A stretch of 64,000 nucleotides of DNA from Eubacteriales bacterium (GCA_045542275.1 JAZQKP010000014.1:524-64523), one strand, 5' to 3'. Positions 891 through 52,123 are shown, counted from the stretch's first letter. Notes: generated by a model from the letters alone, not told the origin. Program-made: numbers and translations.

Positions 891-1664
891 ATGGAAACAA
901 ATGCAAAAATCCTTGTTGCAGATGAAAATATTCAAACAAGGCATTCTACAAAGGAGGCGCTTATAAGAAAAGGCTACCGTAATGTAGATGAAGCTACTAA
1001 CGGAGAAGAGGCGCTTATTAAAATCAACAGAAATCATCCTGATATTGTTATTGCTGATATATGGTTATCAAAGCTTGACGGTATTGGGCTTATAAAAAAC
1101 TCCAGAGGAATTAATTACGGTAAAGATCAGCCACCTGCATTTATTATTGCATCACTTGTTACAAATCAGAATGTATTTATAGAAGCAACAAATGCCGGTG
1201 CATCTATGTGCTTAATGAAGCCCTTTGACTTCTCTAGTCTATGTGAGCATATAAATACAATTTACCGTTCAAGAGAAACTGCTATTCCCGAAAACAAGCC
1301 CAGCCGTGAGGACATCGAAACACAGGTTACAAAGGTTATTCATCAAATTGGCGTGCCTGCACACATAAAAGGATATCAATATTTAAGAACAGCTATTCTT
1401 ATGACCATTTCAGATAACGAAATAATCAATTCCGTAACTAAAATTCTCTATCCGTCTGTAGCGAAAAAGTACCAAACTACTACTTCACGAGTTGAAAGAG
1501 CTATTCGCCATGCCATTGAGGTGGCTTGGGACAGAGGTGATGTTGATACTCTTAATTCATATTTTGGATATACTATTCAAAACAATCGTGGAAAGCCTAC
1601 TAATTCTGAGTTTATTGCAATGATTGCCGATAATATGCGTCTTAAATACAAGTTGTATAACTAA
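891..1664 (+). CDS. spo0A: sporulation master regulator Spo0A
   Basis: Receiver domain ([25 protein letters not shown]) plus the diagnostic Spo0A effector domain ([19 protein letters not shown]; [18 protein letters not shown]; [14 protein letters not shown]). RBS AAGGGAGA lies 6 nt before ATG 891. The ORF-track start at 870 is less likely. Confidence 0.93.
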
Positions 1665-1666
1665 CA

Positions 1667-1704
1667 AAAAGCCTATTGCGAAAATGCAATAGGCTTTTTC
1701 TTTT
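1667..1704 (+). terminator. intrinsic terminator after spo0A
   Basis: GCCTATTGC-gaaaat-GCAATAGGC followed by TTTTTCTTTT. Confidence 0.75.
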
Positions 1705-1724
1705 ATATATAATAAATAATGAAG

Positions 1725-1756
1725 AAAACAAAAAAAGAGGATCTTGCGATCCTCTT
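1725..1756 (-). terminator. intrinsic terminator after rplA
   Basis: On the minus strand: AGAGGATC-gcaa-GATCCTCT followed by TTTTTTTG. Confidence 0.75.
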
Positions 1757-1774
1757 ATTATGTTTGGCTTTAAA

Positions 1775-2464
1775 TTAAAGCTTAGCAGCGTTAACCTTGA
1801 TACCAGGGCCCATTGTGGAAGCCACTGTGCAGCTCTTAATGTACTGACCCTTAGCAGCAGCGGGCTTAGCCTTGATGATAGCACCAAGCAATGTCTGGAA
1901 GTTTTCGTTAAGCTTCTCTGTACCGAAGGAAGCCTTACCGATAGGACAGTGAATGATGTTTGTCTTGTCAAGACGGTCTTCGATCTTCCCAGCCTTAGCC
2001 TCAAGAACAGCCTTAGCAGCATCCATAGATACTGTACCAGCCTTGGGGTTAGGCATAAGTCCCTTAGGACCGAGGATCTTACCAAGACGACCGATAACAC
2101 CCATCATATCAGGTGTAGCGATTACAACGTCGAACTCAAACCAGTTTTCCTTTGTAATCTTTTCAACGTATTCTTCAGCACCAACGTAGTCTGCGCCAGC
2201 CTCTTCAGCTGCCTTAGCCTTCTCGCCACGTGCGAATACGAGTGTACGTACCTTCTTACCTGTACCGTTAGGAAGTACTACAGCACCTCTAACCTGCTGG
2301 TCAGCGTGTCTGGAGTCAACGCCCAAACGAACGTGTACTTCGATAGTTTCGTCAAACTTTGCCTTTGATGTCTCGCATACGAGCTTCATAGCATCTGCGG
2401 GATCATAAAGCTTTGTAGATTCGATAAGCTCAGCGCTTGCGATATATTTCTTTCCCTTTTTCAT
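1775..2464 (-). CDS. rplA: 50S ribosomal protein L1
   Basis: Full-length L1-like sequence ([18 protein letters not shown]; [23 protein letters not shown]), immediately downstream of rplK. Confidence 0.95.
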
Positions 2465-2483
2465 CTCAAGTTACCTCCTTATC

Positions 2484-2909
2484 TTATTCCTCTACAGTAA
2501 TGCCCATAGAACGAGCAGTACCTGCGATCATGCTCATAGCTGCTTCAAGAGAGCCTGCATTAAGGTCGGGCATCTTTGTCTCAGCAATCTTCTGAACCTG
2601 TTCCTTAGTAAGCTTAGCAACCTTAGTCTTGTTAGGAGCTGCAGATGCAGTCTCGATACCAGCTGCCTTCTTAATGAGAACGGGTGCGGGAGGTGTCTTT
2701 GTGATAAATGTGAAGGAACGGTCTGCATATACAGTGATTACAACAGGAATGATGTAACCGATATCGTTCTTTGTTCTTTCGTTAAATTCCTTTGTGAAGT
2801 TAGGAATAGATACGCCGTACTGACCAAGAGCAGGTCCAATAGGCGGCTGGGGTGTAGCTTTACCTGCAGGGATCTGAAGTTTAATATAACCCTGAATTTT
2901 CTTTGCCAT
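2484..2909 (-). CDS. rplK: 50S ribosomal protein L11
   Basis: [24 protein letters not shown] signature; 141 aa. Confidence 0.95.
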
Positions 2910-2997
2910 GATTTATTTCCTCCTATGTGGTACTGTTGAGAGAATCATATTTTCTCTCTCCCACTTATTTGCGACTCGTTAAAGCCGGTCGCGCGCT

Positions 2998-3543
2998 TTA
3001 TTCTTCTATTTTCTTAATACACTTTGCGTCAAGGCTGACAGGCATATCTCTTCCGATGGAAGTAACAATAACTGTAACCTCATGTGTATCTGTTGAAATC
3101 TCGCTGATTCTTCCGCTATGTCCAGTAAGAATACCGTCAACGATTTCAACCATATCGCCGATGTTGAATGCATCTGCCTTTACAAGTTCCTCTCCGCTGA
3201 TCGCACGGGCTTCCTCGTCAGAAAGGGGAACAGGTCTAGATCCAGGACCTACGAAGCCTGTAACACCGCTGATGTAACGTACGATGTGCCAAACCTCATC
3301 ATTCATTATCATTTTAACGAATACGTAGCCGGGATAGATCTTTTCTTCAACAACCTTTTCCTTGCCCTTGGCATCTACTGTGGTTGTTGTAATAACAGGA
3401 ACCTTAACATCAAATATAAGATGAGAAAGATTTCTGTTTTCCACTACTCTTTCAATAGTGCTTTTTACTTTGTTTTCGTAACCAGTGTAGGTATGAACGA
3501 CATACCATTTCTGACCTGCAGTAAGTTCGTTAAAATCGCTCAT
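2998..3543 (-). CDS. nusG: transcription termination/antitermination factor NusG
   Basis: NGN domain (WYVVHTYTGYENKV) and C-terminal KOW (GDMVEIVDGILTGHSGRI). Sits in secE-nusG-rplK synteny. Confidence 0.93.
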   Translation of the reverse strand: MSDFNELTAGQKWYVVHTYTGYENKVKSTIERVVENRNLSHLIFDVKVPVITTTTVDAKGKEKVVEEKIYPGYVFVKMIMNDEVWHIVRYISGVTGFVGPGSRPVPLSDEEARAISGEELVKADAFNIGDMVEIVDGILTGHSGRISEISTDTHEVTVIVTSIGRDMPVSLDAKCIKKIEE

Positions 3544-3561
3544 TTTCAGTTACCTCTCAAA

Positions 3562-3795
3562 TCAAAAGACTTTTGCGAGGAAATTGAAAAGTGCAATAAG
3601 ACCAAAGTCAACAAGTCCGAGAACCAAAGCGATAGCAAGAATAGCAACGATTACCAAGCCAAAGCTCTTAAATGTTGTCTTCTTGGATGCCCATGTAATC
3701 TTCTTGAATTCACTCTTAAGACCCTTAAGCTTCTTTACGAGCTTAGAGAAGAATCCGGGCTTCTTTTCTTTTTTTACTTCGTTCTTTTCAGCCAT
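3562..3795 (-). CDS. secE: preprotein translocase subunit SecE
   Basis: 77 aa, lysine-rich N-terminus, single C-terminal TM; positioned between rpmG and nusG. Confidence 0.85.
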   Translation of the reverse strand: MAEKNEVKKEKKPGFFSKLVKKLKGLKSEFKKITWASKKTTFKSFGLVIVAILAIALVLGLVDFGLIALFNFLAKVF

Positions 3796-3806
3796 TTCGT
3801 TTCTCC

Positions 3807-3956
3807 TTACTTAGTTTCCTTGTGCAAGGTGTGCTTACGACAGAAACGGCAATACTTGTTCATTTCAAGTCTATCCGGATCATTCTTCTTATTTTTCTTT
3901 GTGTCGTAATTACGCTGTTTGCATTCGCTGCATGCCAATGTGATTTTGACTCTCAT
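3807..3956 (-). CDS. rpmG: 50S ribosomal protein L33
   Basis: [49 protein letters not shown] (CxxC...CxxC). Start placed at ATG 3956, preceded by GGAGGTG. The longer ORF-track start at 4070 is rejected. Confidence 0.9.
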
Positions 3957-4100
3957 TTCAGCACCTCCATAATTTATTTGGGAATTTCCCATACTCGTAC
4001 GTAGTACGTACTGTGCCTCCCTCTTACGCAAAGGGGTTAAGCCCATATACTCTGTGCAAAAAAACCGCACAAAAAAAGACCCTCTGCACGAGGTGAATGC

Positions 4101-4129
4101 ATTATAACATAATATTATATGCTTGTCAA
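4101..4129 (-). promoter_or_regulatory. consensus sigma-A promoter for rpmG-secE-nusG-rplKA
   Basis: On the minus strand: TTGACA, 17-nt spacer, TATAAT. Confidence 0.65.
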
Positions 4130-4164
4130 GTACCTTTCGAAAAATTTTTCAAGTAAATTTTCTC

Positions 4165-4193
4165 TTGATATTTTTAGGTACTTGTGCTATAAT
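4165..4193 (+). promoter_or_regulatory. sigma-A promoter for rimM-trmD
   Basis: TTGATA (4165-4170), 17-nt spacer, TGcTATAAT (-10 at 4188-4193). Confidence 0.6.
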
Positions 4194-4235
4194 ATATGTT
4201 GGAAATTTATGTGTACATAAAAGGAGACGTATCTT

Positions 4236-4742
4236 ATGGAAAAATATTTGGAATGTGGTGCTATAACCAGAATACATGGCTTAGCAGGAGCCTTGGTTGT
4301 AAACCATTATTGCGATTCATATGAGGTATTTGCTCAGCTTAAAAATGTATACATTAAATCCTCTACAGGATATGAAAAGAAAAAGGTTAAAAAGATTTCA
4401 CCCTACAAGGTGGGCGCTTTGCTCATGCTTGATGGAGTAACTGATGCCGATGAGGCTATGAAATACCGTGGAAAAACCTTATATGCTGATAGAGATGATC
4501 TTAAGAAAGACGAAGATTCATTCTTTATTGTTGATCTTATAGGCCTACCCGTATGCGATTACAATACAAAGGAAAAATACGGTGTGCTTGGTGAGGTGGC
4601 AAACTACGGTGCGCAAGACGTTTATGTGATCAAGCGCGATGGAAAGACTGATGCGTACATCCCTGCTATACCCGAATTTGTGAAGAGCATTTCACTTGAG
4701 GAAGGAATTTTTATAACACCTATTGAGGGAATGATAGAATGA
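4236..4742 (+). CDS. rimM: 16S rRNA processing protein RimM
   Basis: N-terminal RimM-type beta-barrel motif ([15 protein letters not shown]) and a PRC-like C-terminus. ATGA overlap with trmD. Confidence 0.85.
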
Positions 4743-5479
4743 GATTTGATATTTTAACTCTTTTTCCTGAACAGATAAATGCTGTACTTGGTGAAAGCAT
4801 TATGGGTAGAGCTCAAAAAAATGGGCTGATTTCCGTTAATGCACACAACATCAGGGACTATACATCAAACAAGCACAGAAAGGTGGACGATACACCGTAC
4901 GGAGGCGGTAAGGGCATGCTGATGGCTACACAGCCCATATACGATTGCTACTTGTCTGTCAAGTCTTCTCTACCTGAAGGAAAAACAAGAACTGTCTATA
5001 TGTCACCCAGAGGACGAATTTTCAATCATAATATTGCAAAGGAGCTTTCACAATACGATAATCTTATAATTCTTTGCGGTCACTATGAGGGTGTCGACCA
5101 AAGAGTTCTGGATGAAGTAATTGATGAGGAAATCTCTATAGGTGATTACGTTCTGACAGGCGGTGAGCTACCTGCATGTATACTTGTAGATGCTGTATCA
5201 AGACTTCTTGACGGAGTTTTAGCTGATGAAATATGCCATGAGGATGAAAGCATAGCATCAGGCCTTCTGGAATATCCTCAGTATACAAGACCTCCGATTT
5301 TCAACGGTAAGGAGGTTCCCGAGGTGCTTCTTAGCGGTCACCATGGAAACATAGATAAATGGAGACTTGAAAAATCTCTTGAATTAACAAAGGAGCGTCG
5401 ACCGGATTTATATGAAAAATATATGATCGAGCACCCTCCTGTTGAAAAGAAAAAACGCAAAAGCAAATCTACGCAGTAA
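4739..5479 (+). CDS. trmD: tRNA (guanine37-N1)-methyltransferase TrmD
   Basis: [11 protein letters not shown] start, YGGGKGM motif and [27 protein letters not shown] motif. Confidence 0.93.
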
Positions 5480-5517
5480 TGCGTATTCACTATTAAACTG
5501 GTATTGGATGTGATTGA

Positions 5518-7575
5518 TTGGAAAACAAACAGATTAAAAATACATCACAGGCTACAAAGTCAAAGTTTGAACGCGCTTCGTCGTGGGCTTTAGCCAAGGT
5601 GAGAGGAAGCTTTGTAGGTAAGTTTTTTACTTCATATGAAAAAGCAAACAAGTCTTATATAAGCAAAACAAAAGGTCTTAAAAATCAAGGTAATAAGCAT
5701 AAAACCAGACGCAAGGTATCCAAAATTTTTGAAAATAGCTTTTTTGTTAATTTGGTACCTAAAATAACAAGCTTTCTTTTACGTACATCCCTGCGCGATT
5801 ACGGAATAATAATGCTTAGTATGGGTTTTTTTATGTCTATTCTTTACCCAATACGCAGCTTTGTAACCATTCTCGATGTACCCTTTGAATCCTTTATTAT
5901 GGGTCTGATTCTCGCAGGCTGCTCTATCCCATTGCTTTTTTCAGCAAAAAGCTATGCATCAGGTGTATTGTCAAGCAGACTTGTAAGCTTCATTTTCTTC
6001 CAATGTCTAGGCTTAAAAGCTGACAATTTCCGTTTAGCAAATGAACAAACCACGCACACGTCCTCTAACATTTCCTTTTTTGTAGGAATGTTTATGGGCA
6101 TAATATCATATTTTACAAGTCCGTCCTTTATTCTTATAGCCTTACTTGTTTTACTGCTAGGCTATGCAGTTCTGACAACACCAGAATCAGGTATCGTTGT
6201 GTTGCTTTTTGCAATTCCGTTTATTTCCATTGATTTGTTTATTTTAATGACAATTTATGTGGATATATGCTACATTATTAAGTATATCATAGGTAAAAGA
6301 ACATTGAAATTTGAGCTGTTCGATATTGCAATTTCAGCTATAATGCTTATGATTGTTATCAGCTATGCTTTCTGCCTTGACCACAGAACATCCCTTGTTC
6401 CCACACTTATTAATGCAGCCCTTGTTCTCTGCTACTTTGCGGTTTCAAATCTAATAAGATCAAAACAATGGTTTACACGTTGCCTTGTTTCCTTAACGCT
6501 ATCTGTAACTTTGGCATCTGTTATTGGAATTGTCCAGTTTATACTTAAGGAGCTTAAGGTGATTGTACCTAATTTTGATGCGTTTTCATCAATCAATGAA
6601 CGCATAACATCTACATTCTACAATCCGGATGTATTTGCGATATACTTGTGCGCAATTGTTCCATTTATACTTTTATTCATCTTTTCGGGTAATAGAGCAA
6701 TGTCGCGTATTTACGGTGTATTTTCACTGGCACTTGTTATAACGTGCATTATTCTTAATCAATCCAAGGCAGCACTTATTGCTGTAATAGTAGAAATGCT
6801 GCTCTTCCTAATAATCTACAATAAAAACTTTATATACCTTGCAATGGTTGCTGCGGTGGCAATTCCAATTTTCCACTACACCTTACCTGCAGATATGCTT
6901 GCTTTAATAAATAGCTTTGGAAAAAGTGCTGAATTGACTTCTCCATCAACTGCTATTATTAACAGGACTACGTGGCAAATTTTTAAAAGATTTCCTTTCG
7001 GTATCGGCTTCGGTGAAAATAATTTTGCTGAGGCTTTGGACAGAGTAAATCTTGATTTAAACGGTGCTACAGATCTTGGAAGCATTTACAGACAGCTGCT
7101 TATATCATCAGGAATTCTTGGAATAATTATTTTAACCGCATTCTCTATTCTATTTTTAATCCTTGCCTTTACCCTTTGCGCAAAGGCAAAAAATAAGCAT
7201 AGAAGAATTAATGGCGCAGCAGGATTTGTCTCTATTATCGGTATATTTGTTTCCGGTATTTTCTGCTACTCACTTAAATCAAGCGAGCTTGTATTTATTT
7301 CATTCATTGCAATAGCGCTTACCTTCTCTTACTACAAAATTGAAAGAGAGCTTGATAAGCCTACAAGTGTTTACGTAGATATCACATCTGCAAGTGTTGA
7401 TATAGAAATACCTGCCGAATTTACAAAAAACACAACTCCTAAGAGAAAATATGTACATGCTCCTATAAAGAAGAAATCAAAGGCTCAGATCAAGCGAAAT
7501 CCCTTTGATGAGCTTATGAACAGTAATGAATTCATACGCATAGTTGATGATAATACGGAGGTTGGCGATGATTAA
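5518..7575 (+). CDS. O-antigen ligase-like (Wzy_C family) polytopic membrane protein
   Basis: At least 10 predicted TM helices with a periplasmic-loop region typical of Wzy_C/O-antigen ligase-like proteins. TTG start. The basic N- and C-terminal tails are unusual. Confidence 0.55.
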   Translation: MENKQIKNTSQATKSKFERASSWALAKVRGSFVGKFFTSYEKANKSYISKTKGLKNQGNKHKTRRKVSKIFENSFFVNLVPKITSFLLRTSLRDYGIIMLSMGFFMSILYPIRSFVTILDVPFESFIMGLILAGCSIPLLFSAKSYASGVLSSRLVSFIFFQCLGLKADNFRLANEQTTHTSSNISFFVGMFMGIISYFTSPSFILIALLVLLLGYAVLTTPESGIVVLLFAIPFISIDLFILMTIYVDICYIIKYIIGKRTLKFELFDIAISAIMLMIVISYAFCLDHRTSLVPTLINAALVLCYFAVSNLIRSKQWFTRCLVSLTLSVTLASVIGIVQFILKELKVIVPNFDAFSSINERITSTFYNPDVFAIYLCAIVPFILLFIFSGNRAMSRIYGVFSLALVITCIILNQSKAALIAVIVEMLLFLIIYNKNFIYLAMVAAVAIPIFHYTLPADMLALINSFGKSAELTSPSTAIINRTTWQIFKRFPFGIGFGENNFAEALDRVNLDLNGATDLGSIYRQLLISSGILGIIILTAFSILFLILAFTLCAKAKNKHRRINGAAGFVSIIGIFVSGIFCYSLKSSELVFISFIAIALTFSYYKIERELDKPTSVYVDITSASVDIEIPAEFTKNTTPKRKYVHAPIKKKSKAQIKRNPFDELMNSNEFIRIVDDNTEVGDD

Positions 7576-8020
7576 AGCTCGTAAAGACAAAAAAACCGTA
7601 TTTAACATAATTGATATTATTATCATTGCAATTTTTATTATTTTTCTTTCCTATTTTATATATTCATATGTTTTAGGTAATAGCTTGTATAATATTGGAG
7701 CTGAGGAAGTACAGCTGGAATATAATCTGCGTCTTGACAAGGTAAAGGCTTCGTATTGCAACAATATTAAAGAAGGCGATATCATAAAAACCTCAGACGG
7801 TAAGCTGGTGCTTGGAAGAGTTGTTTCATCCACATCAGAAATTTCTGACGATGGAATGTCCTATACTGTGTATGTAACTGTTCAAGCTGATGCTTATATG
7901 CGTAAAAGCTCAATATTTAATATTCAAAATCAAAAGCTTAAGCCTGATATGGATATTTCAATTCGATTTCCAAACTATTCTCCGCACAGTGCGGTAATCA
8001 CAGATATTAAGGTGGTTTAA
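7568..8020 (+). CDS. small membrane-anchored protein (DUF4330-like)
   Basis: GGAGG RBS before ATG 7568. N-terminal TM (IIDIIIIAIFIIFLSYFIY) then a beta-rich domain. Family call is tentative. Confidence 0.45.
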   Translation: MIKARKDKKTVFNIIDIIIIAIFIIFLSYFIYSYVLGNSLYNIGAEEVQLEYNLRLDKVKASYCNNIKEGDIIKTSDGKLVLGRVVSSTSEISDDGMSYTVYVTVQADAYMRKSSIFNIQNQKLKPDMDISIRFPNYSPHSAVITDIKVV

Positions 8021-9301
8021 ATGTTTATAGACAAGGTTAAAATTTATGTAAAGGCAGGTAACGGTGGTAACGGTTGCGTTTCCTTCAGACGTGAAAAGTA
8101 CGTTGCCAAGGGTGGACCTGACGGCGGTGACGGCGGTCACGGCGGTAATGTGGTATTCCACATCGACAAGGGCTCCAACACATTACTTTCCTTCCGTTAT
8201 AAAAGAAAATTCATTGCCGAAAACGGCGGTGACGGAGCAGGCGCCAAGTTCCATGGTAAAAATGGCGCTGATATAATTGTAAATGTTCCCGAGGGTACTC
8301 TTATCAAGGATGCAGAATCGGGCAAAATACTTAAGGATATGTCCGACTGCGAGGATTGGGTATGCGCCAAGGGTGGACGTGGTGGCTGGGGTAATAAGCA
8401 CTTTGCAACACCCACAAGACAGATACCCATGTTTGCAAAAAGCGGTACAAAGGGTCAGGAACGGGAGCTTACTCTTGAGCTTAAAATGCTTGCAGATGTA
8501 GGTCTTGTTGGCTTGCCAAGTGCAGGAAAATCCTCTCTCTTAGCGGCTGTAAGCGATGCAAGACCCAAGATTGCAGACTATCACTTCACTACTCTCTCGC
8601 CAAATCTCGGTGTGGTTAATGTACGTGACGGACATGGCTTTGTAATGGCTGATATTCCCGGTCTTATTGAGGGTGCATCAGACGGTGCAGGTCTTGGACA
8701 TGCATTCCTTCGCCACGTTGAAAGATGCAGATTGCTTCTTCAGGTGGTTGATATTTCCTGTATTGAGGGAAGAAATCCCATTGATGATATTGTAACAATT
8801 GATACTGAGCTTGAGAAATTCTCTCCCGAGCTTGCATCCCGTCCCAGAATTGTAGTTGCAAATAAGGTTGACTCACTTGACAAAGATCTGGTTGATGTTG
8901 ACGCATTTGAAGGCTATATTAAGGAACGTGGCTGGGAGCTTATATACATTTCTGCCTACACAGGAGAAAACACAGATGAGCTTGTAAAAATGGTTGACGA
9001 CAGACTGCTTGACCTTCCTCCACTTACTATCTATGAGGCTGATTATGAGCCTGAGGATAAGTACCTTAGTGGCGATGACCATGAGGTTACTATCACCCGT
9101 GATGACAAGGGAGTTTACGTGGTTGAGGGCGAATGGCTTTTTAACCTTGTAGGTCAGGTAAACTTTGAGGACAGAGAGTCACTTATGTTTTTCCAGCGTG
9201 TGCTTTTGAAGAGTGGAACTATTGATAAGCTTCGTGAAGCAGGCTGTAAGGATGGAGACACTGTTTCTATGTACGATTTTGAATTTGATTTTGTAACTTA
9301 A
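8021..9301 (+). CDS. obg: GTPase Obg/CgtA
   Basis: Glycine-rich Obg fold (GNGGNGCVSFRREKYVAKGGPDGGDGGHGG), G1 motif GLPSAGKSS, DIPGLIEGA, NKVD, and a C-terminal OCT domain. Confidence 0.95.
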   Translation: MFIDKVKIYVKAGNGGNGCVSFRREKYVAKGGPDGGDGGHGGNVVFHIDKGSNTLLSFRYKRKFIAENGGDGAGAKFHGKNGADIIVNVPEGTLIKDAESGKILKDMSDCEDWVCAKGGRGGWGNKHFATPTRQIPMFAKSGTKGQERELTLELKMLADVGLVGLPSAGKSSLLAAVSDARPKIADYHFTTLSPNLGVVNVRDGHGFVMADIPGLIEGASDGAGLGHAFLRHVERCRLLLQVVDISCIEGRNPIDDIVTIDTELEKFSPELASRPRIVVANKVDSLDKDLVDVDAFEGYIKERGWELIYISAYTGENTDELVKMVDDRLLDLPPLTIYEADYEPEDKYLSGDDHEVTITRDDKGVYVVEGEWLFNLVGQVNFEDRESLMFFQRVLLKSGTIDKLREAGCKDGDTVSMYDFEFDFVT

Positions 9302-9310
9302 GAGGTAACT

Positions 9311-10147
9311 ATGAAATTAAATATTGGCTGCCACCTCTCTGTTTCGGGAGGATATGAAAAAATGGGCAAAGCTGCCCTTTCCGTTGGCGCAAACACCTTT
9401 CAGTTTTTCACAAGAAATCCCCGTGGCGGATCATTTAAAATGCCTACCGATGAGGATATTGCAGGTCTTAACAAAATAATGGCAGAAAACAATTTCTGTC
9501 CCATTATTGCCCATGCGCCTTATACAATGAATCCCTGCGGTGCTGACGAGGAGCTTCGTAACTACACCAAGGATACTATGGCACAGGATATTAAGCTGCT
9601 TGAAAAAATAAACAGCGCATATTACAATTTTCATCCGGGCTCTCACGTTTCTCAGGGTGTAGAGGTTGGTATTGAAAAAACTGCCGACACCGTTAATCAC
9701 ATCTCACAGTTTGCCGAAAAAACCTTTATTCTTATCGAAACTATGGCAGGAAAAGGCTCGGAAATCGGCAAAACCTTTGAGGAAATCAGGGAAATAATCG
9801 ACAGATGCGAAAAAAAGTCTATTGTTGGCGTATGCCTTGACACCTGTCATGTACATGACGGTGGCTATGATATCGGCGCTGACCCTGACAAGGTGCTTAC
9901 AGAATTTGACAAGGTTGTCGGCCTTAATTATCTTAAGGCTATCCACTTAAATGACAGTAAAAATCCTTTAAGCGCACACAAGGACCGTCACGAAAAGATT
10001 GGCGACGGATTCCTTGGAATTGAAGCAATTACAAGAATTATTACTCATCCTGTTATCGCTTCTCTTCCTATCTGCCTTGAAACTCCTAACGAGCTTGAGG
10101 GCTATGCACGTGAGATTGCATTACTTAAAGAAATATTTTACAAGTAA
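9311..10147 (+). CDS. nfo: deoxyribonuclease IV (endonuclease IV)
   Basis: AP endonuclease family 2 TIM-barrel motifs (IAHAPYTMN, HPGSH, CLDTCH, HLNDSK). Confidence 0.88.
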   Translation: MKLNIGCHLSVSGGYEKMGKAALSVGANTFQFFTRNPRGGSFKMPTDEDIAGLNKIMAENNFCPIIAHAPYTMNPCGADEELRNYTKDTMAQDIKLLEKINSAYYNFHPGSHVSQGVEVGIEKTADTVNHISQFAEKTFILIETMAGKGSEIGKTFEEIREIIDRCEKKSIVGVCLDTCHVHDGGYDIGADPDKVLTEFDKVVGLNYLKAIHLNDSKNPLSAHKDRHEKIGDGFLGIEAITRIITHPVIASLPICLETPNELEGYAREIALLKEIFYK

Positions 10148-10158
10148 AAAGAGTGCCT

Positions 10159-10364
10159 TGTGGCGCCTGCCGTAGAGCAGGTGCCACAGTTATATTCGCC
10201 TGCAGCGAGTTATATTGCTTCGCAGTTATATTCGTCTTACGACGAGTGATATTCGCTATGCGAGTTTTATGGCGAATAAAATATCACTAAAGCCTTTAGG
10301 CTTTAATATCACTATTGCGGTAGCAATAATATCACTCCGACGAAGTCGGAATATAACTCTTGCG
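10159..10364 (+). repeat. structured word-plus-hairpin palindromic array (element A)
   Basis: Leading hairpin at 10159-10188. GTTATATT at 10189, 10209 and 10225; GTGATATT at 10246. Reverse-complement words AATATCAC at 10280, 10305 and 10328; AATATAAC at 10350. Each word is separated by a distinct 3-6 bp-stem mini-hairpin. Confidence 0.8.
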
Positions 10365-10497
10365 TTCTCTATCGTTTTATGGTTTATAAGAAAGGTGCGA
10401 AAACAATCTGCTTCTAAAACAACGGAACAAAAATTATTATATTTAATGAAAGACCATTTGGGATGCCAACCGATAATAAATGAAAAAACATAATAAT

Positions 10498-10532
10498 AAA
10501 AGCCGACAGATTCTTAAAATCCGTCGGCTTTT
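10498..10532. terminator. bidirectional intrinsic terminator (nfo/element A side and metG side)
   Basis: AAAAGCCGAC...GTCGGCTTTT hairpin with an A-run and a T-run on the two flanks. Confidence 0.75.
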
Positions 10533-10569
10533 ATCACCCTTATGAGAACCAACCTTTCGGCACTCTTTT

Positions 10570-12156
10570 TTATTTTTCTATTCTTGAAAATAAAATTCCA
10601 AAATCTTTGGGCAAGCTTTCCGCCTTGTAGTTTTGCGCTCTCCAATCCTTAGATAGTCCAAGCCAGCGAATAACCTTTTCAGATGAAAACGGAAGAAATG
10701 GCTGCAATAAAATTGCTAAATTGCCAATCAGATATGTGCAATTATAAATTGTATCCTTACATTTTTCTATATCGTTGCTTCTTGTTTTCCAAGGCTCACA
10801 AGAATCATAATACTTATTTCCATAGCGAACAAGGTCAAAAATACTTTCTAGAGCATCCTTAAAATTGCCCTTTTCTATTTTCTTGCCAATATTATCGTAA
10901 TAATAATCAACCTTTTCTTTAATTTCATCATTTGGTGTAATGCTTTCAAAACTGTTGTTTAAATACTTTATAGCAAAAGCAAGGGTGCGGTTTACCAAAT
11001 TACCCCAAGCGCCAACCAATTCTGAATTATTTTGCTCTATAAATTCTCTGTTTGAGAAATCAGTATCGCGTTTTTCGGGACCGTTTACTATAAAGAAATA
11101 TCTTATTGCATCGGGGTTATATTCATTCGCGAGGTCTTTTGCTAAGATTGACCAGTTTTCACTTTTAGAAATTTTTCTACCCTCCAATGTTAAATGCTCG
11201 CTTGAAATAATTTCATCAGGAAGCCTTAAACCTTCGCCATGAGCGAGTAACAATGCAGGCAAAATAATAGTGTGGAATGGGATATTGTCCTTACCGTGAA
11301 CGTAATAGTGTCTTGCATTTTCGCCATATACCTCTGTGAAAGGTATATTTCTCTCCTCACAAAGTCTTGCAGTTGCAGAAAGATAACCAAGCACATTTTC
11401 CGCCCAAATGTAAATTTTCTTACTTTCGTAATTATCCTTTGGCACATCAATTCCCCAATCCAAATCACGGGTAATAGCCCTGTCGCGAAGTCCTTCGTTT
11501 ATATATTTTCTTGTAAATGATATAGCATTTTTTCTCCAATTATAATGGCTTTCCAACAATTCGTTAAGTTCATTTTCAAGCTTGGATATCAGAAGAAAAA
11601 TCTGTTTTGTTTCTCCAAATAAAAGCTCTGTTTCACATTCAGAGCATTTCGCTTCCAAAACGGACTCAGCATCAAGAACCGCACCGCAATATCCACATTG
11701 ATCAGCTTGTGTTTTCTTACCACAATATGGGCAAATTCCAACTACAAGTCTATCTGTCAAAACCTTTTGACAGGTTGGACAAAACGCCTGTTTTACCGTT
11801 CTTTCCTCAATATAATTACCTTCATACAGCTTTCTATGAAAATCCCTTACAAATTCTTTGTGGTAATTATCAGTTGTTTTGCTATACAAATCATAAGAAA
11901 ATCCCAACTTTTTAAATACCTCACAAAATTCGTTGTGGTATTTGTCGGAAATTTCAAGAGGAGACACGCACTCCTGCTTTGCTCTAATGGTTATAGGTGT
12001 TCCGTGGCAATCGCTACCAGAAACGTAAAATACATTTTCTCCCTTTGCTCTGTAATAACGGGCTACAATATCTCCGGGAAGAAGCGCCGATAAATGCCCA
12101 ATATGGAGCGATCCGTTTGCATACGGCCACGCTCCGCCGATTACAATATTTGTCAT
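10570..12156 (-). CDS. metG: methionyl-tRNA synthetase
   Basis: Class I HIGH motif (SLHIGHL), KMSKS variant (KISKS), and CxxC zinc knuckles in the CP domain. Preceded by a T-box leader. Confidence 0.93.
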   Translation of the reverse strand: MTNIVIGGAWPYANGSLHIGHLSALLPGDIVARYYRAKGENVFYVSGSDCHGTPITIRAKQECVSPLEISDKYHNEFCEVFKKLGFSYDLYSKTTDNYHKEFVRDFHRKLYEGNYIEERTVKQAFCPTCQKVLTDRLVVGICPYCGKKTQADQCGYCGAVLDAESVLEAKCSECETELLFGETKQIFLLISKLENELNELLESHYNWRKNAISFTRKYINEGLRDRAITRDLDWGIDVPKDNYESKKIYIWAENVLGYLSATARLCEERNIPFTEVYGENARHYYVHGKDNIPFHTIILPALLLAHGEGLRLPDEIISSEHLTLEGRKISKSENWSILAKDLANEYNPDAIRYFFIVNGPEKRDTDFSNREFIEQNNSELVGAWGNLVNRTLAFAIKYLNNSFESITPNDEIKEKVDYYYDNIGKKIEKGNFKDALESIFDLVRYGNKYYDSCEPWKTRSNDIEKCKDTIYNCTYLIGNLAILLQPFLPFSSEKVIRWLGLSKDWRAQNYKAESLPKDFGILFSRIEK

Positions 12157-12204
12157 AATAAAAACCTCATTTCTAATTTAGTTTAGTAACACTTTTTCTT
12201 GTTA

Positions 12205-12508
12205 AGAAATAAAAAAACACTCTCACCCCCTGACTAATCAAAAGGGACGAGAGCATAACTCACGTGTTACCACCCTATTTCACCTACCCCTCGCGGCAGT
12301 AGGCCTTATCAAGTTCGGATAGGAAATGATCTATCGAAACTTTATCGCTATCACGGGCGAACCCGATGCAGCCTAATCATTTTGACTCGGTGCATAGCTC
12401 AGAGACCATGTTCGGCAAGGTTGTCTTTATCCATTCTCAGCGCATCTATAAGATGATGGATTTCTCTGTAAAAGCCTAATTTGCTTACTCTTTCTCGTCA
12501 TTGCTGTT
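12205..12508 (-). promoter_or_regulatory. T-box leader (riboswitch) controlling metG
   Basis: On the minus strand: AAATAGGGTGGTAACACGTG T-box core (about 12262-12281), AGAGA and GCUGAGA stem I elements, and a terminator hairpin plus U-run at 12211-12256. Candidate AUG specifier at 12407-12409 (GAAC-AUG-G). Confidence 0.85.
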
Positions 12509-12514
12509 GCAATT

Positions 12515-12543
12515 ATATTATCACATTTGTTTTAATTTGTCAA
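12515..12543 (-). promoter_or_regulatory. sigma-A promoter of the metG T-box leader
   Basis: On the minus strand: TTGACA, 17-nt spacer, TAATAT. Confidence 0.6.
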
Positions 12544-12570
12544 TAAGAAATAAAAAATTACTTTAAAAGT

Positions 12571-12597
12571 AAAAACGCAGCAATAAAGCTGCGTTTT
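12571..12597 (-). terminator. intrinsic terminator after cls
   Basis: AAAAACGCAGC-loop-GCTGCGTTTTT, directly after the cls stop codon. Confidence 0.75.
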
Positions 12598-12598
12598 T

Positions 12599-14161
12599 CT
12601 AAAGTAGTGGTGCGAAGATGCGTACAAGAGAACGGACAAGACGGGCGAAAATATTAGTTTTCAGGTCTTCCTTTTTTATTTCCTCACTCTTTTCAAGAGT
12701 TTCGGAGATATCCCTGTAAATATCCTCTATACAATCTGCATTATAGAGCCACACACCGTTTTCAAAATGGTGAACAAGGCTTCTGTAATCCAGATTAATT
12801 GTGCTTACCATTGCGTATTTACCGTCGGACACTACAGTTTTTGCGTGGATAAAGCCGGTGGTATACTCATATATCTTAACACCTGCATTTATAAGGCGAG
12901 AATAAAAGCTGCGTGTCATACTGAAAACAAGCTTTTTGTCAGGTATGTGAGGTGTGATAATACGCACGTCAACACCCTTTATTGCTGTATTTTCAATAGC
13001 TGTGCAAAGCTCATTGTCGATTATGAGATATGGTGTTGTAATATACACATATTCTGTGGCAGATGCAAGGATATTCTGAATTGCGCTTTTACCTACACGT
13101 CTGTCATACAAGGGCCTTGGACCGTCACCGAAGGGGATAACATAACCATTTGCTTCAACCTTATGTGCCGGATAAATATCCTTATGGGGAGATTTCAGCT
13201 CCTTGAAATTAATACCGAAATCGGTTAAAAACAGCTCGGTAAGTCCACATACAGCCTCACCCTCAAGACGTATTCCGACATCCTTCCAATGACCGAATTT
13301 TACTATTTCATTTATATATTCGTCCGCAATATTTACTCCACCTGTATAGCCGATATAGCCGTCAATAACCATTATTTTTCTGTGGCTGCGATTATTGAAC
13401 TCGCTATCTGCCTGTCCCTTTAGACGTGAAAACGGCGTTGCCAGAATTCCACAGTCTGCAAGGATTTTTGCGTAGTTACCCGGTAAGGTATTCATACACC
13501 CTACATCGTCGTAAAGTACACGTACGTCTATGCCCTTTTGAGCCTTTTTCTTAAGAATTTCAAGAATAGAATCCCAGAATTTACCCTCTTCAATTATGAA
13601 ATACTCAAGATAGATAAACCTTTCTGCCTTTTCAAGGTCCGAAAGCATGCTTTCGTGCATCATTTCACCTGAAGGAAAATATCTTTGAGAGGTGCTTTTA
13701 TAAAGGTGTGAGCCTGAAATATCGCAAAGCATTTTTGCTTGATTAAACGACACAGGGTCGGATTTTTTAAGCTCTGCCATTATTTCTGTATCATCTCTTT
13801 CCTGCTTATACTCCTTAAGGTCATTTAGGCGCTTGATATACTTTTTTTGTAGCTTTCTTGAATAGAAGATAAGATACAGCATAAAGCCTGCTATGGGCAG
13901 AATCAATACAAATAAAAGCCATGGAATTTTATAGTCCGGATTATCGTTAGATGCTATAATTTTAATTACGCATACAATTTCTGTTACCCAACACAAAAGA
14001 TAAAAGTAAGGGACAAAATAACAGAGTGCTACCACTACACCGATTATAGATATTATTTCAAAAACCGTTATAAGCATAGCAAAAATATATCGTACGGGAA
14101 TATAGCTGACCTCTCGCTCTATTTCCTTATTACCCGCCTTATATTTATATGTTCTTTTCAT
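12599..14161 (-). CDS. cls: cardiolipin synthase
   Basis: Two N-terminal TMs and two PLD HKD motifs (HRKIMVIDG; HAKTVVSDG). Start set at ATG 14161, preceded by GGAG. Confidence 0.9.
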   Translation of the reverse strand: MKRTYKYKAGNKEIEREVSYIPVRYIFAMLITVFEIISIIGVVVALCYFVPYFYLLCWVTEIVCVIKIIASNDNPDYKIPWLLFVLILPIAGFMLYLIFYSRKLQKKYIKRLNDLKEYKQERDDTEIMAELKKSDPVSFNQAKMLCDISGSHLYKSTSQRYFPSGEMMHESMLSDLEKAERFIYLEYFIIEEGKFWDSILEILKKKAQKGIDVRVLYDDVGCMNTLPGNYAKILADCGILATPFSRLKGQADSEFNNRSHRKIMVIDGYIGYTGGVNIADEYINEIVKFGHWKDVGIRLEGEAVCGLTELFLTDFGINFKELKSPHKDIYPAHKVEANGYVIPFGDGPRPLYDRRVGKSAIQNILASATEYVYITTPYLIIDNELCTAIENTAIKGVDVRIITPHIPDKKLVFSMTRSFYSRLINAGVKIYEYTTGFIHAKTVVSDGKYAMVSTINLDYRSLVHHFENGVWLYNADCIEDIYRDISETLEKSEEIKKEDLKTNIFARLVRSLVRIFAPLL

Positions 14162-14210
14162 AATTGCTCCTTTAAAGGGAAATAGAGGCACACCTGTGCC
14201 TCTTTTTTAA

Positions 14211-28190: not shown

Positions 28191-28449
28191 AAATAAAAAA
28201 TCCCCGTCTAAAAGACAGGGACGAACAAACAAATTTGCCCGTGGTACCACCCACATTCGATGCATTGCATCCTCAGAAGCGAAAACTCCTTATGTCTGTA
28301 ACGGGACAAGCCGTATCTGTCTACTTGGTTTCAACAAATCTGCTCCAAAGGGAAACGCAATTAGCAAGCGAACAAAATATCTCTCAGCCACGGATATTCT
28401 CTCTTTCTGTACGCTAAACTGCCAAAAGCAACTTTTTCATAGCATTTAC
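28191..28449 (-). promoter_or_regulatory. T-box leader controlling pheST
   Basis: On the minus strand: GAATGTGGGTGGTACCACGGGC T-box core, AGAGAG and GGCUGAGAG stem I elements, and a terminator TCCCTGTC-tttta-GACGGGGA plus U-run (28191-28224). Candidate UUC specifier at 28370-28372. Confidence 0.85.
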
Positions 28450-50311: not shown

Positions 50312-50713
50312 ATGTATACAAGTGCTAAACCCTATTTCTACGGAACAGGTAGAAGAAAATCATCAGTAGCTCGTGTTCGTCTCTATCCCGGTACTGGTGT
50401 TATTACAATCAACGGCAGAGATATCGACGACTACTTTGGTCTCGAAACACTCAAGCTCATCATCAATCAGCCCCTCGACGTTACAAACAACATCGGCAAG
50501 TTCGATATCGTTGCTAACGTAAACGGTGGTGGTATCTCCGGTCAGGCTGGCGCTATCCGTCACGGCATCGCAAGAGCTTTGCTCCTCGCTGATGAAACAT
50601 ACCGTGGTGCTCTTAAGGCTGCTGGACTTCTTACTCGTGACCCCAGAATGAAGGAAAGAAAGAAGTACGGTCTCAAGGCTGCTCGTCGTGCACCTCAGTT
50701 CTCAAAGAGATAA
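50312..50713 (+). CDS. rpsI: 30S ribosomal protein S9
   Basis: [14 protein letters not shown] signature and C-terminal [17 protein letters not shown]. Confidence 0.95.
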
Positions 50714-50733
50714 TTTCGACCTTGGTCGAGTTC

Positions 50734-50767
50734 AAAAAATGCTCTGCTTATGCAGGGCATTTTTTAT
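50734..50767 (+). terminator. intrinsic terminator after rpsI
   Basis: ATGCTCTGC-ttat-GCAGGGCAT followed by TTTTTATT. Confidence 0.75.
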
Positions 50768-50790
50768 TATCTCTTTGAGAACAACTAAAT

Positions 50791-50946
50791 TTGCCCTTAC
50801 AGGCAAGTGAAGTTATTTGTAATAGTGAAGTTCACCTTGTAAGTGAAGTTTCGCCTAACGGCGAAGTAGCAAATTTAACTTCACTTGAACAACAGTTCAA
50901 ACTTCGTTGCGCAGCAACTTCACTTTCGCTTTGGCGAAAACTTCAC
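50791..50946 (+). repeat. structured word-plus-hairpin palindromic array (element B)
   Basis: Leading hairpin at 50791-50806. GTGAAGTT at 50807, 50825 and 50843 (18-nt phase). AACTTCAC at 50877, 50916 and 50939. Degenerate copies at 50861 and 50900. Mini-hairpins lie between the words. Confidence 0.8.
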
Positions 50947-50949
50947 CTC

Positions 50950-50997
50950 TTCTCTGCTGTCCTATTTACTTTTGTTGGAATTTATGGTATAATGCAT
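50950..50997 (+). promoter_or_regulatory. 48-bp promoter module, copy 1
   Basis: TTCTCTGCTGTCCTATTTACTTTTGTTGGAATTTATGGTATAATGCAT: -35 TTTACT, 17-nt spacer, TGgTATAAT. 46/48 identical to 52170-52217. Confidence 0.6.
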
Positions 50998-51037: not shown

Positions 51038-52123
51038 ATGGGGGAAATAATTTCAAGTATTATATGTTTCTTCTTTGTTGTAATAAGCAATTTAATATAC
51101 GAATATATCAAGAAAAAAGAAGAAATTAAGTTATCTTTAAAATCTGAATTTACTGTTAAATCCAGTAAAGGAATATTACTTTTCTTTATGTTATGGATGA
51201 TTATATGCTCACTAGGAATGATTGGTGTGGTAATCTTTCTAATAACGTCAGGCGAACCTAACGAAACTCAAACGGTTTGGATAGCTGAAATAATTTTATT
51301 GGCATTCTTCTTTTTGGGTACATTAGGCTTCTTCACCTGCAAGTATAATTACCTAGTTATCAAGAACAACGGTATAGTAATCAAATCATTATTTAAAAAG
51401 ACACGATTTATTAAATACACCGATATTACTTACGTAAACTGTATAATGGGAATCCAATGCTTTGATTCTGACGGTATCCAGCTTTTTGCAGTTGATCATT
51501 ACCATATTGGTATAGATAAATTGTATTCTTTTTTGCTAAATAAGGGATGTATAGAGTTGCCAACGCCTTACCCAACAAAAGAAATGAAAGATAACGCCAG
51601 ATTTATGGCATATAGAAGGAAATCATCTCTTATATCAAGCTTTTGGGCATTATCGATATTTGCTTTTTTGTTTCTGTCTATAGGACTTTTGGCTAATTCT
51701 TTATCCGACTTTAAAAGCTACGAAAACTATAAGGTTATTGGATATGTAGAATCCTATACAAATGATGACGAAACTCTGAAAATCAAGTTGAAAAATGATA
51801 GTAATCAATACTATGTGAATAATATTGTTTATGATGAAATAAATGAAAACCTATTTAAAGTTATTAACCAAGACGATTCACTAATTTTACATATAGGATA
51901 TATTGATGAATATAATAGACTTAACATTTCTCAAATTGAGATTAATAATACAATCTATTTAAATATGTCCGATGCTGAAGACCGTGAGTATTCAAATTAC
52001 AATGCAGGAATAATTTCAAGTTATATTTTTTTCAGTATAAGTGCAATTTTCTTCGCTTTCAGCATTGTATTTTTTGTTAAGTTAAAAAGATATTCAAAAA
52101 CAGTTTTTAAATTACAAATATAA
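51038..52123 (+). CDS. hypothetical polytopic membrane protein
   Basis: 361-aa ORF with AGGAGG RBS and about 5 TMs separating two soluble regions. Visibly more AT-rich than its neighbours. No family recognised. Confidence 0.65.
   Translation: MGEIISSIICFFFVVISNLIYEYIKKKEEIKLSLKSEFTVKSSKGILLFFMLWMIICSLGMIGVVIFLITSGEPNETQTVWIAEIILLAFFFLGTLGFFTCKYNYLVIKNNGIVIKSLFKKTRFIKYTDITYVNCIMGIQCFDSDGIQLFAVDHYHIGIDKLYSFLLNKGCIELPTPYPTKEMKDNARFMAYRRKSSLISSFWALSIFAFLFLSIGLLANSLSDFKSYENYKVIGYVESYTNDDETLKIKLKNDSNQYYVNNIVYDEINENLFKVINQDDSLILHIGYIDEYNRLNISQIEINNTIYLNMSDAEDREYSNYNAGIISSYIFFSISAIFFAFSIVFFVKLKRYSKTVFKLQI

Follow-up and report, generated by a model that had tools for sequence, protein, structure and literature searches.

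The gap between nfo and metG in the window, the 64-kb stretch of DNA analysed here, is occupied by one complete Gut-1 element (family RF01706 in Rfam) with both of its arms, which we call Element A. Our best explanation, to which we give a probability of about 0.6, is that Gut-1 is here a REP/BOX-like dispersed intergenic repeat read into 3' trailers, with Element A as a complete copy and a second element 3' of rpsI (Element B) as a weaker one. The analysis establishes the family identity, the local hairpins, the pair architecture, the pairing of the centre, the multi-copy and strain-variable behaviour and the placement next to terminators.

Gut-1 was described by Weinberg et al. (2010, Genome Biol 11:R31, PMC2864571) as a single arm, rated as a certain RNA and found only in human-gut environmental sequence, in no sequenced organism. 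Literature searches on Gut-1, its words or terminator-loop repeats found nothing past that paper, and since 2010 the family has stood in Rfam as an orphan 'sRNA' with human-gut reads only and a one-line description. The inverted second arm, the cap hairpin, the fourth hairpin, the centre pairing and the word subfamilies go beyond the 2010 description, as do the multi-copy, strain-variable behaviour, the placement after terminators and tRNA genes, the presence in metatranscriptome assemblies and the occurrence in ruminant-gut genomes. The window sets Gut-1 in the assembled genome of a Clostridia lineage from the herbivore gut and, together with related loci, provides a fuller anatomy and a repeat-like population behaviour. 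If this behaviour holds, an orphan RNA motif would be reclassified as a REP/BOX-like repeat of uncultured Firmicutes, Gut-1 loci would be flagged as assembly breakpoints and rearrangement edges in gut metagenome-assembled genomes, and a concrete question would arise, namely what recognises the words. For the nfo-metG gap itself, no new category is needed.

Anatomy and family identity of Element A

The features of the locus, in window coordinates, are the following.

10146-10157, plus strand: surviving 5' arm AAAAAGAGTGCC of the ancestral nfo/cls bidirectional terminator; identity with relatives stops after 10157
10158-10189, plus strand: cap hairpin, GTGGCGCCTGC cgtaga GCAGGTGCCAC plus flanking pairs, with the U-rich first word directly 3'
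10187-10257, plus strand: arm 1 (Gut-1 unit), words at 10189, 10209, 10225 and 10246, three hairpins
10254-10279, plus strand: fourth hairpin CGCtatGCG (10254-10262) and centre, with the P0 partner (see below) inside
10276-10359, minus strand: arm 2 (Gut-1 unit), words at 10350, 10328, 10305 and 10280 as read on this strand, three hairpins, convergent with arm 1
10358-10390, plus strand: right-end module TCTTGCGTTCTCT..., from sequence comparison with A-type copies
10492-10538, strand unassigned: terminator hairpin at the metG 3' end, outside Element A

Direct inspection and pattern search place the words exactly where the earlier note had put them, with GTTATATT at 10189, 10209 and 10225 and GTGATATT at 10246 on the left, and AATATCAC at 10280, 10305 and 10328 and AATATAAC at 10350 on the right. 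The motif GTKATATT has 23 matches in the window, 8 of them inside the 170 nt of Element A, against a chance expectation of 8.5 +/- 2.8 for the whole 64 kb (23 matches were reached by 0/100 shuffles). A conserved A precedes every word in the element, giving a unit of the form A-GTKATATT-hairpin on both strands, and the word spacing is irregular (16-25 nt). All mini-hairpins are present (CGCctgcaGCG, GCttcGC, CGTCttacGACG, CGCtatGCG, AAAGCCtttaGGCTTT, ATTGCggtaGCAAT and CCGACgaaGTCGG); the 4 pairs of CGTCttacGACG are one above the version given earlier (CGTcttACG). The stems of the right arm differ from those of the left arm, which led us to reject the idea that the arms are mirror copies of each other. 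Both strands of the element fold much more stably than shuffled sequences (z = -6.6 and -6.8).

The first hairpin, described earlier with a 12-bp stem, is real and lies at 10158-10189, its stem having instead 11 core pairs including one G-T, or 13 pairs counting the flanking TT/AG. The same cap, TTGTGGCRCC...GGTGCCACA, is present in loci L175 and L133; homologous cap hairpins head other copies, and a true terminator with a T-run occupies its place in others. The claim that no terminator separates nfo from the element is doubtful, as a simple scan rates the first hairpin and the U-rich first word as terminator-like (13 pairs, 8 of them G-C, tail TTATATTCGC). In a permissive terminator scan, the cap hairpin with word 1 and three unit hairpins pass, with interrupted U-rich words as tails, and the 800-nt stretch around Element A contains 7 sites where 0.5 are expected.

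The 92-codon ORF at 10215-10493, which has a TTG start, had been taken for a read-through of the repeats, and its first two-thirds do cross them. With that portion inside the repeats and a sense Gut-1 arm on each strand, the ORF looks spurious from its sequence. At the opposite end of the element, ACTCTT at 10356-10361 forms part of the right-end module. This promoter-like module is degenerate in the window copy; in some other A-type copies it runs on into an outward sigma-A-like promoter (TTGYKT - 17 nt - TGnTATAAT). The right end of L153 (~2206-2240) reads TCTTGTTTTCTCTGCTGATTTGTGCTATAAT, and L153 and L102 possess a nearly identical arm 2, with one stem carrying a compensated G-C to A-T change.

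No RNA family had been recognised in this sequence by the earlier note, a statement overturned by the match to Gut-1. Arm 1 (10187-10257, plus strand) aligns with RF01706 over its full length, positions 1-77, with 46.1 bits (E = 2.7e-8), and arm 2 (10276-10359, minus strand) does so with 38.5 bits (E = 2.3e-6), again over 1-77. These scores and that of the first arm of Element B (38.0 bits) are all under the gathering score of the 77-position model, 50 bits; at this score Rfam returned no match in the whole window, and Gut-1 surfaced only in E-value mode. Ten arms of metagenome copies that share their words and hairpin order with the window arms exceed the gathering score, with 50.4-76.5 bits. 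A covariance model of our own, R1, built from same-word arms, gives 64.5 bits for arm 1 and 70.5 bits for arm 2, and its search detects A and B, each with its two arms, and a pair in locus L070. The RF01706 seed alignment itself holds GUGAUAUU rows, as in the window, some of them with a tRNA and a terminator upstream and an inverted AAUAUCAC arm in the unaligned flank. Given the same-word copies above 50 bits, the scores of our own model and the GUGAUAUU seed rows, the homology of the window arms to accepted Gut-1 members is clear. The Gut-1 consensus, CAaUGAAAU-hp-GUGAAAU-hp-GUGAAAU-hp-GUGAAAU, has the same word-plus-hairpin grammar as Element A.

The earlier view that this is not a CRISPR array is upheld by the irregular spacing, the varying words and the finding of no linked cas gene. 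With no linked RT or cas gene, and on the same spacing and words, we dropped the retron, CRISPR array, plasmid iterons, omega-type heptads and Rex/CRP half-sites as candidates.

Local hairpins, word complementarity and the centre pairing

An alignment of 36 arms, including window positions 10187-10253 and 10280-10359, was used to examine covariation. The three local hairpins, taken with their AUU...AGU closures, have 94.7% of cells paired, compared with 71% in shuffles and 34-68% in slid controls. Double-sided changes number 166 versus 48 in shuffles, a value matched by 0/500 of them, and occur at 13/21 pairs, with a covariation score of 0.50 (shuffles 0.11, 0/500; slid controls 0.05-0.10). 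The closing U-G pair is invariant across the 36 arms and compatible only with the Rfam sense strand. The local hairpins are therefore strongly supported by covariation. Each stem is closed by AUU...AGU, that is, by the end of one word and the start of the next, with ~3 unpaired bases between hairpins. As the word ends are locked in local stems, the words act as stem closures and linkers and not as rungs of a ladder.

A nested ladder, with left and right words paired into 8-bp helices and hairpins branching at every rung, had been proposed by the earlier note; its helices would be linked through four-way junctions, whether as RNA or as single-stranded DNA. The words of the two arms are indeed reverse complements of each other in all four subfamilies, the outermost pair L1-R4 is present in the unconstrained fold of Element A (-81.0 kcal/mol), and a forced ladder is no costlier than local hairpins only (-74.9 and -74.5 kcal/mol). 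However, any two inverted copies of one motif will have complementary words, and the only word position that varies does not covary: among 22 full elements, it is complementary in 31/53 nested pairs, with 30.6 expected. Whole elements with all-G left words and all-T right words exist in this set, and elements such as L136/L168 and L137 are mismatched at all rungs. Left and right word numbers are often unequal, solo arms exist, the word ends are already taken by covarying local stems, and the pairing that has support joins word 1 to the centre and not to the outermost right word. We regard the ladder as highly improbable.

The long-range pairing that is supported by covariation is P0, not the ladder. 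P0 joins the start of arm 1 (the 3' part of word 1 and the 5' arm of hairpin 1) with the centre, and in Element A consists of GGCGAATA (10271-10278) complementary to TATTCGCC (10193-10200), 8 nt. It spans 10-15 nt in 13/20 A-type elements, with compensating changes, as in ATATTCGCC/GGCGAATAT, ATATTCGTCCCTT/AAGGGACGAATAT and TTTTATTCGCC/GGCGAATAAAA. The same relation is found in Element B (AATTTGC/GCAAATT), in the C-type element of L326 (TATGATTGCC/GGCAATCATA) and in a classical GUGAAAU element, L190 (AAATAAATCCC/GGGATTTATTT). P0 recurs in this way across four word subfamilies and competes with hairpin 1.

The loops of the 36 arms carry a strand bias. On the complement of the Rfam sense strand, 29/57 triloops are GNA and 14/35 tetraloops GNRA, while the sense strand has 1 GNA triloop and 0 GNRA tetraloops, with ~4 and ~1 expected by chance. 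Because an element combines two inverted arms, one arm of each kind is present in both possible transcripts and on both DNA strands. The bias would suit a functional form in single-stranded DNA, in which very stable C(GNA)G and C(GNRA)G mini-hairpins would signal priming or initiation, or be acted on by a single-strand transposase. Hairpins of the d(GCGAAGC) type are exceptionally stable in DNA, and the inverted pair would place one such array on each strand, in agreement with the symmetry of the element. GNRA loops are, however, just as characteristic of RNA, and any transcript across a pair includes one such arm; the invariant U-G closure points to RNA on the other strand; and no HUH-type gene was present among the neighbours scanned. 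This makes a single-stranded DNA form, in our view, very improbable.

Locus history, copies and genomic behaviour

Both flanking genes of Element A were confirmed, nfo by PF01261 and by homologues named deoxyribonuclease IV, and metG (10570-12156, minus strand) by PF09334. In relatives with 91%, 85% and 84% identical nfo, nfo and cls converge around one plain terminator, and the strain with 99% identical nfo retains this terminator and the cls 3' end. The relatives with 99%, 91% and 85% identity read AAAAAGAGTGCC-aaac/aaaa-GGCACTCTTTTTTT, followed by the cls 3' end. Element A is absent from the nfo relatives compared. In the window, the matching cls end (TAAAGTAG...) begins only at 12600, cls occupying 12599-14191 on the minus strand. 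As identity ends at 10157 and resumes at 12600, Element A lies at one border of a 2.4-kb rearrangement instead of being a clean insertion; its junctions recur in independent metagenome contigs, which confirms them, and no target-site duplication is visible around it. A model with Element A inserted in the nfo terminator loop and a cls remnant at ~10380-10430 was rejected, because the intact cls end lies at 12600 with metG in between. An exact look-up of the nfo protein of the window returned no contig.

The 2.4-kb block that splits nfo from cls (10158-12599) comprises Element A, metG, a T-box leader and a terminator at 12571-12598, and its left breakpoint lies in the loop of the ancestral nfo/cls terminator. 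The T-box leader, at 12240-12510 on the minus strand and directly upstream of metG, scores 85.5 bits, and another at 28214-28449 on the same strand scores 75 bits (Rfam gathering score 93). After nfo in the 84% relative lies a ~370-nt region (L006:3347-3731, z = -10.3) with a closing 14-15-bp stem AAATCCCTCGCAGA...TCTGCGAGGGATTT, several nested hairpins and a C-type word array (GTTATGA). Both covariance models, RF01706 and R1, missed this element, which is filed with the Gut-1 family by anatomy only.

Element B, at 50782-50948 and 3' of rpsI, is also real and is the same kind of thing as Element A, as had been suggested; it is a second, weaker Gut-1 copy with a different word. Its features are listed here.

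50734-50765, plus strand: canonical rpsI terminator, 14 pairs and TTTTTT, directly upstream of Element B, also in L326/L327
50782-50854, plus strand: arm 1, cap hairpin TTTGCCcttacaGGCAA and then three copies of the word GTGAAGTT (50807, 50825, 50843)
50865-50876, plus strand: centre, GCAAATT (50869-50875) complementary to AATTTGC (50788-50794), the P0 relation
50877-50948, minus strand: arm 2, four AACTTCAC-type words (50877, 50900, 50916, 50939) with hairpins between

Its first arm matches the Rfam model over positions 1-77 with 38 bits (E = 8e-4 in a 70-kb search) and R1 with 28.7 bits (E = 0.008); its second arm matches R1 with 25.6 bits (E = 0.041). The rpsI site has filled and empty alleles. 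In L326/L327 the flanks are near-identical (identical S9 protein) but enclose a C-type element, of another subfamily, with the architecture of Element B, the word RYTATGA/TCATAAC and different hairpins, while other contigs skip 50788-50949 or 50716-50951. At the 50788-50949 indel no target-site duplication was found, the flanks ...AACTA / TTCTCTG... sharing no joint bases. A perfect 17-bp inverted repeat (50698-50714 / 50766-50782), conserved in L326/L327, encloses a small hairpin and the rpsI terminator, and its left arm (50698-50714) is formed by the final rpsI codons. Downstream of B, TTTACT - 17 nt - TGgTATAAT lies at 50965-50993, ahead of an ORF at 51038-52123 with no Pfam match.

Further copies exist. 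A metagenome pattern scan returned ~24 full elements with the words of the window, in unrelated contexts, and other metagenome copies retain the words with different hairpins. A full element consists, in order, of a cap hairpin (often a real terminator), arm 1 with 3-4 G+C-cored hairpins, a centre and an inverted arm 2; a constant word of 8-9 nt separates the short hairpins of an arm. There are at least four word subfamilies, all words within one element belong to one of them, and the numbers of left and right words often differ. With our own covariance model, 23 convergent arm pairs were found in metagenome loci, which with A, B and L070 makes 26, and no divergent pair was found in this same set; about ten metagenome copies are solo arm-1 copies. 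In 80 loci (1.3 Mb) of nfo relatives, the same model finds a copy in L070 alone. A ladder detector (7-mer, <=1 mismatch, gaps 12-32, >=3 + 3 copies) picks out A and B in the window, together with one weak hit in coding sequence, and nothing in shuffles; this spacing-constrained detector is specific, whereas k-mer and loose ladder scans missed A or drowned in A+T-rich noise. A phage association was considered and rejected, as of 119 pattern hits in viral contigs only 3 are true elements, one lying next to a tRNA-like 3' end, and the rest are A+T-rich tandem repeats.

Gut-1 is high-copy in herbivore-gut metagenomes, with many copies in herbivore- and human-gut Clostridia. Over 10179-10364, the depth of gut-metagenome contigs is 1000-14000, compared with 5-116 on the flanks (four DNA runs), and loose ends specific to the flanks lie at 10187 and 10358/10370, those beyond 10370 reading GCCGATTTGTGWTATAAT in several runs. 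Gut-1 behaves, in short, as a dispersed intergenic repeat between unrelated genes, variable among near-identical strains. In the pairs L141 and L203, and L131 and L159, one flank and one arm are common and the sequences then diverge inside the element, which suggests that elements mark recombination or assembly breakpoints. Several contigs stop inside or beside elements (L328, L175).

A terminator typically stands immediately upstream of the copies. Upstream flanks end in T-runs, and arm 1 normally begins 1-2 nt past the terminator or cap hairpin. Copies lie downstream of tRNA, rRNA and ribosomal-protein operons, and in 9/41 loci (two of which may be one locus) a tRNA gene of the same strand ends 28-38 nt upstream of arm 1, a terminator filling the gap; five tRNA types are represented (Arg, Met, Gln, Ala, Tyr). 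No transposase, integrase or RAYT-type gene adjoins the copies, 10 Pfam-scanned neighbours being ordinary genes, and an all-against-all BLASTP of ~37 loci gave no recurring flanking ORF except 23S_rRNA_IVP (PF05635). This gene, of 118-121 aa, lies directly downstream of a tRNA and Gut-1 in four loci (L138:1915-2271, L152:4910-5266, L094:742-1107, L195:359-724). Pfam was run on two of the four; the remaining two are 59-80% identical to that pair and identical to each other, probably representing one locus. In L138 a full element lies on one side of the gene and a second, solo arm 1 on the other. Separately, a conserved stretch of ~45 nt (TTTTGTCTTATACYGTWACAAGCAGGGAA..TGTG.., with a hairpin at its end) adjoins Gut-1 elements in L131 (~225-265), L159 and L190 (~5205-5260) and accompanies two different subfamilies; in L131 and L190 it has no Rfam match at gathering score.

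Arm 1 could instead be a free-standing gene for a trans-acting sRNA, the second arm and the flanks being incidental. Rfam classes the family as Gene; sRNA, the 2010 authors rated it a certain RNA, its three hairpins covary strongly, the invariant U-G closing pair suits the Rfam sense strand only, and solo arm-1 copies exist. In addition, metatranscriptome contigs hold Gut-1 at depths from hundreds to 2600 (these data are unstranded, possibly include DNA and are not specific to the nfo locus), with the left arm deeper than the right. The DNA runs, however, show this same left-over-right bias. The start of arm 1 just 1-2 nt after the terminator or cap hairpin leaves no space for a promoter of its own, convergent pairs make up most copies, and it is the opposite strand on which the loops seem optimised. 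Each community also has many divergent copies, and loci differ in whether a copy is present, which is unusual for sRNA genes. We consider the sRNA gene unlikely.

The words, direct on one side and inverted on the other, might alternatively be bound as double-stranded DNA by a sequence-specific protein, be it a transposase, a recombinase, a nucleoid protein or, as with REP/BIME, gyrase; each subfamily would then have a cognate protein of its own. Conserved words with variable spacers, one degenerate word position (K) as is typical of binding motifs, the symmetric layout and the single subfamily of words per element would all agree with this. So would the copies downstream of highly transcribed tRNA, rRNA and ribosomal-protein operons, near which E. 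coli gyrase sites cluster. Against it, the irregular spacing implies no helical phasing of the words, the spacers are under clear selection for hairpins that binding to double-stranded DNA would not need, and no linked candidate protein gene was found among the neighbours examined. A role as protein sites is improbable in our judgement.

We return to the dispersed repeat read into 3' trailers. The element would spread as a non-autonomous repeat, comparable to REP/REPIN, BOX and MITE and, being located at gene ends, would be included in 3' trailers from either side. There, its stable hairpins, each with a U-rich word behind it, could provide a second point of termination or impede 3' exonucleases; at nfo, the old terminator has lost one half, and the cap hairpin now occupies that position. 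Transcription of Element A as an nfo 3' UTR, as the earlier note supposed, may occur. A role as stabiliser or terminator is proposed by analogy, and fails to account for the conservation of words within a subfamily or for the strong strand bias of the loops. We put forward more tentatively, as a possible extension, that Gut-1 might be a new class of mobile or self-propagating repeat and not an sRNA gene, with a cognate enzyme reading the subfamily word, copies homing 3' of terminators and the pairing of hairpin 1 and centre taking part in the mechanism. An arm would then be an array of sequence-free, structure-conserved hairpins punctuated by the subfamily word, so that different subfamilies could fill one site in sister strains.

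Comparison with known systems

The closest relative is Gut-1 itself (RF01706). The window arms share with it the three tandem short hairpins, a constant word (GUGAAAU in the consensus) and the occurrence in gut metagenomes and uncultured Clostridia, and differ in scoring 46.1 and 38.5 bits, below the gathering score.

Intrinsic terminators resemble the Gut-1 unit in its G+C-cored hairpin followed by a U-rich word, and copies abut true terminators. On the other hand, the unit stems are short (~7 pairs with closures) and the words are not uninterrupted U-runs; GUGAAAU (D type) is not U-rich, and word conservation is not a property of terminators.

MITEs such as the Correia elements are likewise small and non-coding, with inverted ends, presence/absence polymorphism and an outward promoter in some copies. 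Gut-1 differs from them in that no target-site duplication was seen and in that its 'terminal repeats' are whole hairpin arrays; we know of no parent insertion sequence for it.

BOX of Streptococcus pneumoniae, boxA-(boxB)n-boxC, is a Gram-positive intergenic repeat with a variable number of modules, strongly folding and transcribed. Like Gut-1 it has no coding capacity and no known mobilising enzyme. Its sequence is unrelated, its modules are of 45-60 nt and conserved in sequence, and it has neither the word-plus-variable-hairpin grammar nor the convergent pair of arms.

In REP sequences, according to Di Nocera et al. (2013, PMC3733652), one end of the palindrome bears a tetranucleotide tag, GTAG or CGTC. 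This tag is absent from the Gut-1 units, which are flanked by A-GTKATATT, GTGAAGTT, GTTATGA or GTGAAAT. Unlike in REP, only the words are conserved between units and not the hairpin sequences, each arm holds 3-4 units, the host phylum is different and no RAYT-type gene was found near copies. The statement that Element A is not a REP element is correct for membership and does not extend to behaviour, in which it acts much like REP. In common with REP/BIME/REPIN of Proteobacteria, Gut-1 consists of short extragenic palindromic units in high copy and in inverted doublets, placed at gene 3' ends or between convergent genes, variable among strains and, for Gut-1 probably, transcribed into 3' trailers.
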